DNA of 64,000 bases from a virus. Positions within the stretch are counted from its first letter, which is position 1. Every line of letters begins with the position of its first letter. Positions 6,449 to 60,522 of this stretch are shown piece after piece. Where the stretch lies: the IMG/VR virus record IMGVR_UViG_3300019776_000919, positions 32,001 through 96,000 of that record; one strand, 5' to 3'. The position numbers and the translations under genes are program-made. A model generated the notes under the pieces. It searched no databases. It worked only from the letters and a program-made list of their open reading frames with translations, and was not told where the DNA came from.

Positions 6449-7007
6449 AAAGCCAGTTTTTATTTCCACTTGCCAGTTTTGTCCGAAATTTATGGCAGAA
6501 ATTGTTCCAGTAAAATCAGGCAAAAGCCAGTTTTTAAAAAAGCTAAAAATAAAAAGTGGCTTCAGAAGTTCCAGTATCTATTAAGGAAAGAGGGTCAAAA
6601 GCCAGTTTTCCACCTTTTTTTGAAAAAAATATACATACTCTGTGTGAGAGATGAATTGGAAAAAAGTAGAAGCCATAAAAACGTCTCTTATATATATTAT
6701 ATATATAGATCTCAGGAGAAGAATATATTATATATATAAGAAGATGTATGTTTTACTGGCACTTTAATATTACAATACTTAATTCTATTTTTCTAGAAAT
6801 TTTTTCTCTCTCATAGAGTATGTATATTTTTTTCAAAAAAAGGTGGAAAACTGGCTTTTGACCCTCTTTCCCTTATAGATACTGGAACTCTTGAAGCCAG
6901 TTTTTAAAAAAGCTAAAAATAAAAAGTGGCTTTTGCCTGATTTTACTAGAACAATTTCTGCCACAAATTTCGGACAAAACTGGCAAGTGGAAATAGAAAC
7001 TGGCTTT
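6449..7007. repeat. Large inverted repeat (~200-bp arms) with GCCAGTTTT iterons and AT-rich core; candidate replication origin
   Basis: 6449-~6651 is the near-perfect reverse complement of ~6805-7007; TA-rich inner palindrome at 6686-6741; lies between convergent transcription units. Confidence 0.85.
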
Positions 7008-16700: not shown

Positions 16701-17077
16701 TGTTTTAAATAATGATCATCTTTATTCTTTGGAAATTCTACTTCTTCTAACTCATCTATAGAATATAATCGAATGCATCCATTTCCATAGTTTCTCTCAT
16801 TACTTACGGCGGAAAATACTTTACTACATTCCGAGTTATCATAATTCCGCTCCAACACACCGTACCCTTGAGAAATTGCATATATACTTTTCAGAGAGGT
16901 AATTTCTATAAAAAATACACGGTTGGGGTACTTGGTTGTAGTAGACCAAGGCTCCTCTTTAAATTCAGAGTTTGGAGGATGACAATTCGGCCATCTAAAA
17001 TATCCAAAATCGTGAGATATGGTAGCCCCAGGCTTTATACGGGCCCAGAAGAAAGACTTTGTGACTTTAGTGTCCAT
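16655..17077 (-). CDS. Hypothetical protein
   Basis: 140-aa ORF overlapping its neighbours' ends. Confidence 0.5.
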   Translation of the reverse strand: MDTKVTKSFFWARIKPGATISHDFGYFRWPNCHPPNSEFKEEPWSTTTKYPNRVFFIEITSLKSIYAISQGYGVLERNYDNSECSKVFSAVSNERNYGNGCIRLYSIDELEEVEFPKNKDDHYLKQWALGLPTTTQLEMF

Positions 17078-17444
17078 ATTCTTTTAAGAAATTTTCAAAA
17101 TCTTTTTTCAACAACTCAGCCATTTCCCCTCTAACCGGTTTGCCATCGGCAGCATCCCTTTCTAAGACGTTACAAATCATCTTGACAGATGCACACAATT
17201 TAATGTGCGCAGCCTCTTTTTTACTGGCAGTATCAGGAGGGAATCCTAACTTTATATCTTTTTGTACTTGTAAGGATTCTTTGATCGAAGAAGCTTCTTG
17301 TTTTCCTAAAAACTTTTCTTCGATGGCTTTAGTAGCTTGAATCATATCCGCTAAAGTTCGAATTTCTTGTTCAGCCGGTCTAATTTGACCGGGAGCATGA
17401 GTTTTATTTGTTACTTTGTGAGCGGGTTGAAATGGTATAGACAT
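17067..17444 (-). CDS. Hypothetical protein
   Basis: 125-aa ORF. Confidence 0.5.
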   Translation of the reverse strand: MSIPFQPAHKVTNKTHAPGQIRPAEQEIRTLADMIQATKAIEEKFLGKQEASSIKESLQVQKDIKLGFPPDTASKKEAAHIKLCASVKMICNVLERDAADGKPVRGEMAELLKKDFENFLKEYGH

Positions 17445-47015: not shown

Positions 47016-47075
47016 ACAAAACATATATCTCCGTACTATCCTTATACCAGAATATTGACGAATTATTGGTTAATT

Positions 47076-47768
47076 TTACACCAATATCTTACCTGCGTCA
47101 ATATCGTTTTTCAGTTCAACCAACTCATCTACGTTCAGACCCAATTCTTGTTTTAGTAGATGTTTTGCATTAGCTATTTTCTGAGCTTTAGCTATTTCAA
47201 CTCTTTTAAGAAGCTCTTCTTTTTCTTTCAAAGCGTATCTAATGGCTTTGGCAAAAACAAGGTATTCTTGATCGCTTTGATTCGTTAAACTTCTTTTGGA
47301 AAAAGCTGCCAACAAAAACCTTTGAGCATCGTTATTTAAAAGAGCAGGGGGTCTTTTGTAATGAGATGGATGAACGAAGACAGTTATATAATACAGTTGC
47401 GCTTTTAAACCTACAAAATTTGCTTTAAATTTTTGATGATTACTATCGATATAGGACTGGATGTCGGTAACCAGTTTACTATAATTAACCAATAATTCGT
47501 TAATCCCCATGTTGGCTATACAAATTGCTGAAGCTTCTGACCAAGAGTTTTCATCGGTAAGTATTTTATGAAATTCAGGATCCTCATCTCTTCTGACAAA
47601 AGCAAATTTCAAAATATCATGAGGGCTTTTAATGTTCAGATCAGAACCCAACCGGTCTTTAATAAAAGCAATTTTGGCCTGGTCTTGAATTTCTATTGGG
47701 AAATCTTCAAATTTTTCATCTTGACCAGATTTGGATTTATATGAACTCATTTTTTGAAATGACATCAC
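47076..47768 (-). CDS. Hypothetical protein (paralogous with 47765..48424)
   Basis: Shares AKIAFI, F(V/I)(R/S)RD-x-x-P and terminal AK-x-x-L-x-x-ELGL with its neighbour. Confidence 0.6.
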   Translation of the reverse strand: MMSFQKMSSYKSKSGQDEKFEDFPIEIQDQAKIAFIKDRLGSDLNIKSPHDILKFAFVRRDEDPEFHKILTDENSWSEASAICIANMGINELLVNYSKLVTDIQSYIDSNHQKFKANFVGLKAQLYYITVFVHPSHYKRPPALLNNDAQRFLLAAFSKRSLTNQSDQEYLVFAKAIRYALKEKEELLKRVEIAKAQKIANAKHLLKQELGLNVDELVELKNDIDAGKILV

Positions 47769-56332: not shown

Positions 56333-56413
56333 TGCATACCCTCATATGCGGTTTAGAAGGAATATCCCTTCATACTATTCTTATACCATATTACAATGTA
56401 AGAATTGACTAAA
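56332..56413 (-). repeat. 82-bp promoter/leader/RBS cassette, copy 1
   Basis: Identical to 57842-57923 except one base; contains TCAA-N16-TGGTATAAG, a leader hairpin and GAGGG-TATG. Confidence 0.9.
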
Positions 56414-56950: not shown

Positions 56951-57072
56951 CCTCCGTATATGTAAGGAAGAGATATTTCTTCGTACTATTCTTATACCAT
57001 ATTACAATATTAGAATTGACTAGGAATTATCGTTTTCTTAACTAAAGAAATGGGGTTGCCATTTCTAACTCC

Positions 57073-57474
57073 TTATTGGAGTTTTATCGGATTTATCTCC
57101 GGGTTGTTGAACACCCAAAGGTCCAACGCTTTTCTCAAAGTGTCACCTTGAATGCGAGTCAGGGACTTGTCCTTGAGAGGGATCAGTTCCAGTGCAATGC
57201 CATAGCTATCAAGGACATGACCGACCTTGATGATCGTCTTGAAGAATTGGTCCAGGCCAACTCCCAGGTCGACGCACAGCATCATTGCCTGGTTGAAGTC
57301 AAGGGTCAATTCTCCCCGCTCGTAACGAGAGTAATGCTTTTCGCTTACTTTCAGCGATCCGCACACCTCGGCTCTGGTGGCTTTGCGAAGCTCACGGTAT
57401 TTCCGAAGCACCAGCCCGACAATTTCGGGAAAAATGACGTAGAGATTGTTGCTCATTTCAACCTCCGAAAGCAA
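57073..57474 (-). CDS. XRE-family HTH protein
   Basis: LRKYRELRKATRAEV...YSRYERGE; real start may be MSNN. Confidence 0.8.
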   Translation of the reverse strand: MLSEVEMSNNLYVIFPEIVGLVLRKYRELRKATRAEVCGSLKVSEKHYSRYERGELTLDFNQAMMLCVDLGVGLDQFFKTIIKVGHVLDSYGIALELIPLKDKSLTRIQGDTLRKALDLWVFNNPEINPIKLQ

Positions 57475-57847
57475 TGGCTGTGTGTTCGTTATCCAATTGG
57501 ATAACTTTGTCCTTGATAAGATCTTTCAAGGCTTTACCACGGAGTTGGATTCCGGAAAGTTCCTCTTTCTCCACTTCAACTTCAATCCCCTTGTCGAAAA
57601 GGAAACACTCGACGCCGGACGTAATTTGAAAGAAGTCTTCCATCTGAACGTCCAGATGGGTGAGCGTCAGGTAGAGATTGGTGACGCTCATCGGTACTTC
57701 ACCAGTTTCGTAGCGGGAGTAAGTAGAGACCGAAACCTTCGTTTCGGCGGCTACTCCGGTCTGAAGGAGATTTCTCCGTTTGCGGAGCTGCTCGATAATA
57801 GTGCCGACGAGAACGTCGTACGTACAGAAAACTTCGGTCATTTGCAT
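57458..57847 (-). CDS. XRE-family HTH protein (paralog of neighbour)
   Basis: LRKRRNLLQTGVA...STYSRYETGE; shares I-x-L-x-G-x-x-L-type C-terminus. Confidence 0.8.
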   Translation of the reverse strand: MQMTEVFCTYDVLVGTIIEQLRKRRNLLQTGVAAETKVSVSTYSRYETGEVPMSVTNLYLTLTHLDVQMEDFFQITSGVECFLFDKGIEVEVEKEELSGIQLRGKALKDLIKDKVIQLDNEHTAIAFGG

Positions 57848-57923
57848 ACCCTCATATGCGGTTTAGAAGGAATATCCCTTCATACTATTCTTATACCATA
57901 TTGCAATGTAAGAATTGACTAAA
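57842..57923 (-). repeat. 82-bp promoter/leader/RBS cassette, copy 2
   Basis: Direct repeat of 56332-56413. Confidence 0.9.
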
Positions 57924-57929
57924 GTAAGC

Positions 57930-57955
57930 TAAAAACAAGGGGTTTAGCCTTGTTT
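57930..57955 (-). terminator. Rho-independent terminator immediately 3' of the structured RNA
   Basis: AAACAAGG-GGTTTAG-CCTTGTTT with A-tract. Confidence 0.7.
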
Positions 57956-58446
57956 GCTGCCGTTAGGCAGATCGTGAAGAACCCTTGCAACCCTAGGGAT
58001 GGTTAGTCTTAAGTCGAAAAGTCGGAACGCAGGTAGTCGGTAAATCGGATAATCGAAACGTCTGAATTCGGAAATTCGGAGTACCGATAATCCACCCAGT
58101 TATAGCCAGGCGGATGTGTTGTTTCCAATAAATAAGGTTTGCTTTACCGATGCAAATTTGGCACCTAACGATGGTGCCCCGACAATGTAGCTGCGCAACT
58201 ACTCGTGATAGGCTCACGGTGGCCTTCCTAGTCGCATTGCAAAGGTTCTTTTTATTAAGTATTACACGTATATATAGAATGTACAGCCAATAAGGCGAAC
58301 TTCTTAGCGCTACCTAAGTTTCATGCTTCTTATTATAACTAATACATTCCTCAACTAGATGGAGTCCCTACGCAGGCTCTGTCCTTTTCAGGGAGCGTAA
58401 GTATCCATTACGTGAATACTTAATTCACGATCTGCCTAACGGCAGC
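57956..58446 (-). ncRNA. Candidate ~490-nt structured RNA (or MITE-like element) with a 23-bp closing stem and short-repeat array
   Basis: Perfect 23-bp inverted repeat 57956-57978/58424-58446; nested stems 57978-57990/58237-58249 and 58255-58270/58409-58423; nine 7-8-nt repeats at 58005-58080. Confidence 0.7.
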
Positions 58447-58456
58447 TGTTTCAAGG

Positions 58457-59146
58457 TTAGTTGAAACGAACGGTCAGCGGGATTGCTGCATACTCCGGCT
58501 GGATCGGAATGTAGATCGTATTGACCTGTTCCAGATTCAGGTTGAGTTCAATGGCCCAGTTTGCCTGTTGGATTGCAGCGTCCGCTTCACGCAGGCAGTC
58601 CGAAGCAAAGCGCAAGGCCTTGACGGCACCGATCACGTCGAACGGCGTGTAGGTGAAATTCCAAACGTCTTCTGAACCACCCTCCTCTCCGGGTCGGGTA
58701 ATCCGGCCGGATTGAGGGACACGGCTGATGCCAACCACCTGCTCACCGCTGTTGGGACGGGAGGTCATTTCCGTCAACAGACGGACCTTGATCTGCAGCT
58801 TCTTGCGCAAGAGCAGCAGCTGACCCAGGGTGATCGAAACCTTGTTCTGATTCGGAGTTTCAGGGTAGCTGTTCGAAAGCAGGTATTCGGGGACCTGCAG
58901 GGTCGTCGAGGCGTTGGCCGTTTGGATGGCCAGATCCAGGGCCGTGATTGCGTTCAAGATGTAGTCTTGAGAACGCAGGGCGCTTTCAACGGTCTCGACG
59001 TGAACTCGCTGAAAAACTTCAGCGGTAACGTTTGCCCCGAGGGCGGTGCTGATCCTCTGCGGCTTCGGCGTCAGGTGAGCCGTGCTCAGCATCGTGACCT
59101 TCACGTTCATTTCCTTGCGTATGGTCAAAGCTTCAGCGAGTTTCAT
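58457..59146 (-). CDS. DIP1984/DUF6847-like helical protein
   Basis: MKLAEAL-x-x-R start, internal TL-x-Q-x-L-x-x-R repeat, I-x-x-AN twice, C-terminal AIQQANWAIEL; family recognised from memory. Confidence 0.65.
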   Translation of the reverse strand: MKLAEALTIRKEMNVKVTMLSTAHLTPKPQRISTALGANVTAEVFQRVHVETVESALRSQDYILNAITALDLAIQTANASTTLQVPEYLLSNSYPETPNQNKVSITLGQLLLLRKKLQIKVRLLTEMTSRPNSGEQVVGISRVPQSGRITRPGEEGGSEDVWNFTYTPFDVIGAVKALRFASDCLREADAAIQQANWAIELNLNLEQVNTIYIPIQPEYAAIPLTVRFN

Positions 59147-59192
59147 TTCAGTTCTTTCAGTCGGGTTGAAATAGTCGGATTGGATTTGCAGT

Positions 59193-59711
59193 TTACGACC
59201 GCAGGCGTTTCATGCATCGATCAAGTGCTTCTCCATCGATAACCCCTATGGAGAAGAAATCCTTGGGGTCAAGGGTTAGTGACCACCGATCTTGGCAATC
59301 CATTGTGGTTGCCGTGAAAGGGACGGTATTGATCACCACCACGAAAGGGTAACTTCCTTTTGAACCACGGATCATTTCACCACCAAATTTCTTGACGATG
59401 TCACCGACCTTCAAGGTGACTCCCGTCCTGACCGTCTCTTTACGGACTTCAGGGGTGGGCGAAGTCATTCGAGGTATCAACGGCTCCGCAATCAGCGGTT
59501 GAAAACCCAACCCAACTTGCAGGGTAGGGATTTCTTGCGTTGCCGATTTTTTGGTTTCCACCTGAATCAACTTGGGACCCGAATCTTGTTTCGGCAATTG
59601 ATTCGGCATCCGGAAAGGAGGAGCTGATTTTTCAATCGGCAAATTTCCAATCCCCGTTACCAACGAAGGAGGAGTGGTTTGAATCTGGAAATCAGACATA
59701 GCGTGTAACAC
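59193..59711 (-). CDS. Hypothetical protein
   Basis: Pro-rich N-terminus, SH3-like LKVGDIV domain; start probably MSDFQ. Confidence 0.55.
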   Translation of the reverse strand: MLHAMSDFQIQTTPPSLVTGIGNLPIEKSAPPFRMPNQLPKQDSGPKLIQVETKKSATQEIPTLQVGLGFQPLIAEPLIPRMTSPTPEVRKETVRTGVTLKVGDIVKKFGGEMIRGSKGSYPFVVVINTVPFTATTMDCQDRWSLTLDPKDFFSIGVIDGEALDRCMKRLRS

Positions 59712-59731
59712 CTATTTGTTCAAGTTGGTAA

Positions 59732-60280
59732 TGGTAGGCCGTGTTGGATTCGAACCAACGACCAAAGGATTCGTACCACTTCGACTTTCGCCGCCGTCTT
59801 TCGACGTTCGTGGTCTGGACTATGTCTTGACCATACTACCGTCGCAGGTTAGGTCCGTGCTGTTTAGTCTCTACACCTTTCGCCTTAGGGGAGGCGACTT
59901 GGCTCGGCATTAGCTTGGAATTGTATGAACACGTCAGGAGTTCAGGAAAGGGCGCACCACAATCCTTCAGTCCATGATCACTATTCATGCCCTTCTTTAG
60001 CTTTCGCCGAATTTAACACGATTCATCCCAAATCTCACAGTAGTTCGCATTGCATCGGATTAACCTATCCTCTGAGGGGAGGATGATTGAATTATGCCTT
60101 GTGAGCATATCAATTTATTTGCAATGTTACTATACCGGCTTTTGATTTAGTTTATACGCCTTTCGGTTGAGTCGTTACGCCATCCGGGCTGATGACTACC
60201 GCTCATTTTTCGTAGATGCACAATACTGAAAATGAGATTTACTATGAGTCCTCTGCTCTAACCATCTGAGCTAACGGCCC
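59732..60280 (-). tRNA. tRNA-Ile2(CAU), interrupted by a group I intron; exons 60280-60244 and 59771-59732
   Basis: Spliced product GGGCCGTTAGCTCAGATGGTTAGAGCAGAGGACTCAT|AATCCTTTGGTCGTTGGTTCGAATCCAACACGGCCTACCA folds as a cloverleaf; resembles Ile2 rather than Met. Confidence 0.9.
59772..60243 (-). mobile_element. Group I intron (IC3, Azoarcus-like), 472 nt, no ORF
   Basis: Core GUUAAAUUCGGCGAAA, GCUAAUGCCGAGCCAAG, AAGGUGUAGAGACUA, GACAUAGUCCAG, GGCGAAAGUC; P1 CUCAU|AGUA:UACUGUGAG; terminal G. Confidence 0.92.
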
Positions 60281-60522
60281 ACTGCCAACTTTTTAAAGCA
60301 TAAAGCAATGTACAGATTTCTCTGTACTATTCTTATACCATGTTGTAATACGATTATTGAATTACTAAAGAGATCTCAGTTTGTATTTGTCATTCCTTCG
60401 GTATACAGTCTCTAACCACACCCAATGCACAACGTCTTCATTGTATTGATTTTGAGTAGTGACTAAAACCGGATACCAAGCAAACCAATTCTTCCATCCG
60501 TGGTCAGGTATGATTCTGATTC

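Follow-up and report, generated by a model that had tools for sequence, protein, structure and literature searches.

A widespread, uncatalogued family of structured phage RNAs is genetically coupled to DUF6847/DIP1984-like genes

The locus described here raises the question of what a long, highly structured non-coding block is doing directly behind a gene for a protein of the DIP1984/DUF6847 type, and whether gene and structure together form a system of their own. The locus is located in a stretch of 64,000 nucleotides (the window), which covers bases 32001-96000 of the IMG/VR record IMGVR_UViG_3300019776_000919, a phage genome of 169,713 bp that is complete and has direct terminal repeats; DNA of this phage is present in aquatic and freshwater metagenomes. 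The original prediction, made from the letters of the window, was that the gene is followed by a co-transcribed, multi-stem RNA of about 490 nt with a periodic array of short repeats, in a layout known from no described system. We conclude firmly that the element belongs to a genuine family of phage RNAs which is widespread, uncatalogued and genetically coupled to DUF6847-like genes, and the gene-RNA pair indeed matches no described family. Its conserved unit is a single arm, 57977-58250, while the outer helix and a 5' hairpin of about 170 nt are peculiar to this phage.

The element begins 10 nt past the TAA stop codon of the gene with the first arm of the outer helix (58424-58446), which is 100% complementary over all 23 nt to the second arm (57956-57978), just as predicted; neither the window (chance expectation 0.01) nor the whole 169.7-kb genome contains a second occurrence of these arms. 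The minimum free energy fold of the minus strand reproduces the proposed three-way junction, consisting of the outer helix, a 5' hairpin whose closing stem pairs 58409-58423 with 58255-58270, and a repeat-bearing arm, at a fold z-score of -9.45. The third helix of this junction is present, but instead of 13 bp with one irregular pair it comprises 15 bp (58236-58250 with 57977-57991) with two G-U pairs, and it is extended across the junction by the 23-bp outer helix. Since the plus strand folds nearly as well (z -8.18), the strand of the RNA is not readable from this sequence alone. A comparison with known RNA families, which had been suggested along with the prediction, returned no match in 57000-60000 with Rfam 15 (cmscan, permissive filters, E up to 10). 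RAGATH-27 (RF03100) gave sub-threshold hits only, all of them at other places of the genome and none at this locus. The sequencing runs listed for this phage include no RNA run, and contigs from four DNA runs showed no variant without the element or without the extra 5' domain.

Close relatives of the 229-amino-acid (aa) protein were obtained neither by a viral-contig locus search, nor by a k-mer protein search, nor by blastn and tblastn against GenBank phages, and exact scans of viral, metagenome and genome collections with the outer-helix arm and a pattern for the core of the P2 hairpin gave chance matches only, in unrelated and mostly coding DNA. An exhaustive HMMER search identified 11 representative homologues of 27-41% identity, and all ten homologous loci with enough DNA carry an element of 270-340 nt downstream of the gene and on the same strand. 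What these elements have in common is an architecture rather than a sequence: a closing helix P1, a U-G pair followed by a GCG(A/U) bulge, a second helix P1b, the hairpins P2, P3 and P4, a variable region, the array, and a UAACCA tail. In the ten nearest relatives P1 is 24-29 bp long with an unrelated sequence in each locus, and a P1b of 5-7 bp with compensatory changes is found at the equivalent place in 10/10. The ten nearest sequences served to build a covariance model (R1). In 10/10 independent viral loci, which had been retrieved with the protein alignment, R1 placed the RNA on the plus strand and immediately behind the gene (E 1e-25 to 1e-7). Among further loci, retrieved with a small-form protein alignment, it identified the RNA in 66/77; most of the misses among these 77 have diverged P2 and P3 hairpins which are visible by eye. 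Two cultured Vibrio phages, PS32B.1 (host Vibrio crassostreae; RNA at about 16971-17239 of MW824407) and 1.264.O, were also matched by R1, in both cases in a gap without annotation. R1 found no second copy elsewhere in the genome of the present phage and gave no match in phage T5.

Thus, the DNA downstream of homologues holds both the covarying stems and the periodic array for which the original prediction had proposed to look there. The arrangement has exceptions, namely two open reading frames (ORFs) between gene and RNA in locus L047 and an RNA upstream of the gene in L133. Since the genes flanking the module vary between clades (TerL and portal in L053, others elsewhere), the gene-RNA pair is the constant unit. 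The 5' hairpin domain has no counterpart in the relatives, and blastn of 58251-58423 against all loci returned the self-match only. Of the proposed 490-nt RNA, what stands is a structured RNA on the gene strand; conserved is only the repeat-bearing arm of about 270 nt, and the 490-nt junction is specific to this phage. Where this phage has its extra hairpin domain, several relatives instead encode a hydrophobic, membrane-like peptide in a small ORF between gene and RNA (L005:4667-4810, L009:4046-4207, L041:3690-3839, L047:1083-1337). In an 87-kb viral contig the module (L052:1367-1753) resides in an island with a transfer-messenger RNA (100 bits) and seven transfer RNAs (tRNAs). The exact P2 hairpin sequence, CCGTGAGCCTATCACGAG, also occurs in an unrelated phage (L015:6257-6274, also L016 and L023), after a consensus TTGACT...TATAAT promoter and before a ribosome-binding site, which may be chance.

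The strand on which the structure is maintained was read from the relatives. Plain MAFFT alignments mis-register P1, and P1 and P1b were for this reason counted by hand. The P1 pairs of the nearest relatives comprise 224 Watson-Crick pairs, 27 G-U pairs and a single A-C pair, and this ratio of 27:1 shows selection on the gene strand, i.e. on the RNA. In an alignment of 64 sequences, 54/64 rows of which were not used in building R1, 85.8% of the cells are paired as compared to 50.6% in shuffles, and the covariation score is 0.81 as compared to 0.20 in shuffles and 0.11-0.14 when the partners are slid. P2 is 100% paired with double changes in 5/5 pairs, and 92.5% paired in the 64 sequences; P3 is paired to 97% in the latter. 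The structure-conserved RNA hence lies on the gene strand, and in nearly all relatives examined it comes after the protein gene. RNAalifold proposed a further possible pairing, GCG:CGC, which crosses P1b and shows no variation. A pseudoknot of the P4 loop (GUUAG) with the tail (CUAAC) was considered and is not claimed; it would have 7 bp in L010 and L041, but does not covary where the tail reads UAUCCA.

A further signal of selection resides in the loop of P3. In about 52/64 sequences this loop, L3, is self-complementary and switches among at least seven tetranucleotides, GCGC, GGCC, GUAC, UGCA, ACGU, UCGA and AGCU, and larger loops retain a CCGG or GGCC core. Positions 1-4 and 2-3 of L3 are complementary in 94.2% of the cells versus 55.8% in shuffles, a value reached by 0/500 shuffles, with 41 double changes versus 12.4. 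As adjacent bases cannot pair inside one loop, this switching among palindromes points to a symmetric contact between two molecules, an argument which Kretsch et al. have applied to the loops of OLE and GOLLD (bioRxiv 10.1101/2024.12.08.627333). Judged from this pattern, the RNA likely dimerises through its P3 loop.

The proposed periodicity of the array was borne out by autocorrelation, which in this phage peaks at lags of 7-8, 15 and 23 (0.40-0.46 versus 0.25 expected); about ten units are counted between 58000 and 58082, where nine had been noted. Across the family the periodicity is kept at lags of 8, 15 and 22-23, as is the commonest word, UCCGA, and the array is less paired than the remainder of the RNA. 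The original prediction further proposed that an oligomer of the adjacent protein would bind the array with one unit per subunit. It is plausible that the protein binds to the repeats; the protein is, however, near neutral and a tandem of two modules, and its single-module form is predicted to be a dimer. Anticodon-loop mimics, T-loop mimics, RNase E sites, and rut or CsrA sites were considered as readings of the units, and none of them fits all members.

In the variable region that precedes the array, 26/53 of the small-phage relatives carry a complete tRNA, with varied anticodons. This phage's copy and all ten members of its clade have plain hairpins and no tRNA at this position. Nested tRNAs with the anticodon UUA (ochre-suppressor type) or with a called four-base anticodon (GCUG) occur at L088:1600-1675 and L111:1676-1750.

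The protein was assigned by profile and structure comparison, as had also been suggested. Its predicted structure (predicted local distance difference test, pLDDT, 83.5) has its best fold match in 3KDQ (3kdq_A; Foldseek probability 1.0, TMt 0.72), a structure of DIP1984 which was deposited without an assigned function and which we take to be the only solved one of the family. The profile comparison with the DIP1984/DUF6847 family gave an E-value of 1e-3. The proposed membership is thus upheld by the fold and by the KLAEAL...RK and IQxxNW motifs, but it is remote, with scores below both curated cut-offs (23.7 bits against 27 for Pfam DUF6847; 31.1 bits against 70 for NCBIfam DIP1984_fam). The single-module profile matches each half of the protein (E 4e-6 and 9e-12), and by sequence the protein is a tandem duplication of the DUF6847 module of about 100 aa. 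The single-module form of small phages (L053) passes the Pfam cut-off with 32.9 bits, and in the protein of L052 two modules have been fused in tandem independently. For two single-module copies, complex prediction yielded an ipSAE of 0.44 versus 0.00 for the best control, the runs agreeing in at least 93% of contacts at a pLDDT of at least 70; in a calibration, 20/30 solved homodimers and 1/23 monomers attained this value. The single module is accordingly predicted by modelling to form a symmetric homodimer via its conserved N- and C-terminal motifs. No paper mentioning DIP1984 or DUF6847 was found in the open-access PMC and bioRxiv literature, and PADLOC returned no match for the DIP1984-like protein or for the neighbouring genes.

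Gene and RNA appear to belong to the same transcription unit, in agreement with the predicted co-transcription. A promoter-like motif, TGGTATAAGNATAGTA, occurs in 14 copies in the window, all on the minus strand (0.17 expected by chance; examples at 57883-57898, 56984-56999, 56373-56388 and 60325-60340), and no copy lies between the DIP1984-like gene and the RNA, the nearest being those upstream of the gene and downstream of the RNA that are listed in Table 1. The motif is also present 3' of the RNA in L005, L041, L042 and L047, often preceded by a TTAGCTTA box. A terminator had been placed right after the element; a hairpin with a U-tract is present at about 57928-57955, and relatives have an equivalent hairpin at the same position after the RNA, but it is weak (8 bp, -9 kcal/mol, z -1.3) and was not picked up by a consensus terminator scan. 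Two paralogous helix-turn-helix (HTH) genes of the Cro/C1 type follow the RNA (57073-57474 and 57458-57847), with a terminator-promoter cassette before each; L005 has one such gene and more distant relatives have none. Upstream, the product of the 172-aa ORF is 30-41% identical to those of the upstream ORFs in L005, L009, L010 and L041 and weakly matches phrog_17597. For the region 59732-60280, which is part of the same transcription unit as the RNA, a tRNA-Ile(CAU) with a group I intron had been proposed; ARAGORN found no tRNA there, and an Rfam scan at gathering thresholds neither a tRNA nor an intron.

Table 1. Position of the DIP1984-like gene, the RNA element and adjoining features in the window.
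Feature	Position	Strand	Basis
Closest upstream TGGTATAAGNATAGTA copy, probable start of the transcription unit	60325..60340	-	motif scan
172-aa ORF, conserved immediately upstream of the DIP1984-like gene in nearer relatives	59193..59711	-	
DIP1984/DUF6847-like protein gene, 229 aa, two helical modules of ~100 aa in tandem	58457..59146	-	profile + Foldseek
Whole RNA element, 491 nt, closed by 23-bp outer helix (58424-58446 with 57956-57978)	57956..58446	-	
5' hairpin domain, ~170 nt, inserted in 5' strand of closing helix; this phage only	58251..58423	-	fold, blastn
Conserved core RNA; model R1 222 bits, E 1e-72	57977..58250	-	
P1, 5' strand; pairs with 57977-57991, 15 bp, two G-U pairs	58236..58250	-	
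Conserved GCGA bulge after the U-G pair ending P1, facing a single G	58232..58235	-	
P1b, 5' strand (CUAGG); pairs with 57993-57997 (CCUAG)	58227..58231	-	
P2 hairpin, 5 bp, loop GCCUA	58204..58218	-	
P3 hairpin; self-complementary tetraloop L3 GCGC at 58193-58196	58187..58202	-	
P4 hairpin, loop AUCGUUA	58160..58178	-	fold, alignment
Variable region, two hairpins in this phage	58090..58156	-	
Array, about ten 7-8-nt units (U-C/U-C-G-A-N-U), mostly unpaired, with terminal conserved GACUAACCA tail	58000..58082	-	
Terminator-like hairpin (8 bp, 7-nt loop) and U-tract	57928..57955	-	fold; equivalent hairpin in relatives
Next TGGTATAAGNATAGTA copy, opening the following unit (HTH genes)	57883..57898	-	motif scan

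It might be hypothesized, with about even chances of being right, that this RNA, which belongs to a phage non-coding RNA family not catalogued so far, constitutes a two-gene module together with the upstream DUF6847/DIP1984-like gene, and that the two products make up a symmetric RNA-protein particle. The RNA would be made as the 3' end of an mRNA starting at the promoter near 60340 and would be released by cleavage at the long perfect closing helix, with RNase III as the candidate enzyme. Two such RNAs may then be joined via the self-complementary P3 loop, and a two-fold symmetric protein, represented by the tandem form in this phage and by the predicted homodimer in small phages, would bind them to give the particle. 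The putative binding site of the protein is the conserved bulged P1/P1b stem, the array, or both. The unpaired array of about 80 nt with its roughly ten UCCGANU-like units might serve as a multivalent platform for this protein itself or for an RNA-binding factor of the host. Based on the tRNA islands and on the tRNAs nested in the RNAs of relatives, it is proposed that the module takes part in the metabolism of tRNA or RNA while the phage infects its host. More tentatively, and with the odds rather against it, the module may represent a new class of phage ribonucleoprotein, in which a loop-joined RNA pair and a two-fold symmetric helical protein reading a heptad-periodic array capture or protect tRNAs or another host RNA-handling factor, e.g. 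blunting tRNA-directed host defences.

Several points weigh against the proposed particle. For this phage, we infer the transcription, the processing and the ends of the RNA, and gene and RNA might be inherited together only because they are transcribed together. The alignments A5 and A8 were fitted to the model structure, by which the pair counts are somewhat inflated. A loop of 4 nt is small for a kissing contact and would need an opened closing pair or an extended duplex. The most conserved motifs of the protein are located in the predicted dimer interface and not at an evident RNA-binding surface, and the proteins are near neutral (isoelectric points of 5.2-9.0). In addition, R1 found no match near eight canonical Actinomycetota DUF6847 genes, indicating that the protein family does not always need the RNA.

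The main rival, which we regard as possible but doubtful, is an assembly of RNA alone in the manner of GOLLD and ROOL: the RNA would multimerise via L3 and other contacts, the array would recruit or sequester a host factor (RNase E, Hfq, a tRNA enzyme or the ribosome), and the protein would merely be co-expressed or act elsewhere. The likeness to these RNAs extends to phage encoding, often in or near tRNA islands, to a variable linker that can hold a phage tRNA, as in the 26/53 relatives, and to self-complementary loops that covary among palindromes, indicating symmetric RNA-RNA contacts (Weinberg et al. 2017, PMC5737381; bioRxiv 10.1101/2024.12.08.627333). The absence of a basic character in the proteins fits such an assembly as well, and the retention of a UCCGA-type unit alongside proteins with only about 25-30% identity fits a conserved host target. 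However, the RNA of this phage matches neither of the two Rfam 15 models up to E 10 (57000-60000), it carries the periodic single-stranded array, and with about 270 nt, as compared to 580-800 nt or more, and one detected symmetric contact it is far simpler than the cage-forming RNAs. Moreover, GOLLD and ROOL have no fixed protein-gene partner, whereas this RNA is tied to a single protein gene family, which it follows in about 90 loci on unrelated phage backbones.

The proposed RNA-protein module resembles in part the YrlA-type Y RNAs with their partner Ro60/Rsr, which have a modular RNA with a long terminal stem and a conserved bulge, an internal tRNA or tRNA-like module, and a gene next to the presumed protein partner (Chen et al. 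2014, PMC4201824). The stem and the GCG(A/U) bulge are present in this phage, which is without the tRNA module, and relatives have real tRNAs. One relative, L055, has a permuted module that is YrlA-like and gives a sub-threshold match to the Rfam YrlA model (RF02553) of 36.5 bits (gathering score 69 bits); L055 is the only relative matched by this model, and 57000-60000 is not. The presumed partner differs, being a small helical DUF6847 protein here, and the Y RNAs are without a repeat array. A search for a TROVE/Ro60 gene gave no match in the complete 169.7-kb genome while control genomes were matched, and no RtcB gene was found in this phage.

In the trp and hut leaders of Bacillus, evenly spaced unpaired motifs are read one per subunit by the oligomeric proteins TRAP and HutP, and our element shares with these leaders the regular spacing of short motifs along an unpaired RNA. 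Their motifs, however, are triplets in cis-acting leaders that control termination and are bound by ring oligomers, whereas the units of 7-8 nt observed here reside in a closed, stand-alone RNA downstream of the gene, and the protein is a predicted dimer, not a 9-10-mer. With canonical DIP1984/DUF6847 proteins (PF20935; NF038048; 3KDQ) the phage protein has in common the helical-hairpin fold, the N-terminal KLAEAL...RK and the C-terminal IQxxNW; it differs in its two-module tandem, which stays below both cut-offs, and the eight Actinomycetota members are without a nearby RNA.

We consider it unlikely that the element acts merely in cis, as a stabiliser or processing site at the 3' end of the mRNA or as a carrier for the expression and processing of the nested tRNAs, without a function in trans. 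The position between stop codon and terminator with no promoter of its own would suit such a role, as would the resemblance of the long perfect closing helix to an RNase III site and the real tRNAs within the RNA of many relatives. Yet the conserved bulge, the loop sequences, the self-complementary L3 and the 10-unit array exceed the needs of a stabiliser, half of the small-phage members and the whole clade of ten to which this phage belongs lack a tRNA in the RNA, and in L047 and L133 the RNA is separated from, or located upstream of, the gene.

The shared architecture of the relatives and the ratio of 27 G-U pairs to one A-C pair together dispose of the remaining two readings. A DNA-level element, i.e. 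an iteron replication origin or an operator array for the two downstream HTH proteins, is very improbable: short tandem repeats, inverted repeats, a lower G+C content, the HTH genes at 57073-57847 and the nearly palindromic DNA of P3 would fit, but G-U pairs are kept and A-C pairs avoided in a strand-asymmetric manner, the helices covary rather than keep a binding sequence, and the HTH genes are absent from most of the relatives' loci. Least credible is a mobile insertion resembling a miniature inverted-repeat transposable element between stop codon and terminator, with the perfect 23-bp arms as terminal inverted repeats and AAACA as a 5-bp target duplication, which was suspected at first because AAACA flanks both arms and was rejected since the element is single-copy in the genome, has no copy in viral, phage or genome collections, occupies the same place in relatives of 25-40% protein identity, whose helix sequences differ but remain complementary, and shows selection on one RNA strand, which terminal repeats of DNA would not be expected to show; if anything, only the additional 5' hairpin domain could have been inserted later.

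Outside the module, the window contains eight tRNA genes (ARAGORN). Around 47058-47500, an 18-bp inverted repeat (ACGAATTATTGGTTAATT) surrounds a small ORF beside a tRNA-Leu(UAG) and a copy of the promoter motif, a layout resembling a gene cassette with defined borders. A pair of related palindromes, 535-580 bp long and almost perfect, with (TA)n centres and GGTCAAAAGCCAGTTTT-type blocks common to their arms, are located at 6461-6995 of the window and at G000:C1:113593-114171; they might be origins or hairpin-forming elements.

The RNA family described here is smaller than GOLLD and ROOL yet widespread, with about a hundred loci in phages of 35 to 170 kb. It brings together three features that are not known in combination: a loop covarying among palindromes, which implies RNA-RNA dimerisation, a periodic array of 7-8-nt units, and a slot that accepts whole tRNAs. 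Unlike the elaborate phage RNAs GOLLD and ROOL, it has a protein gene of its own from which experiments can start, and the presence of the family in the cultured Vibrio phages PS32B.1 and 1.264.O makes these ideas directly testable. For the DUF6847/DIP1984 family, the coupling to this RNA would be the first functional lead.

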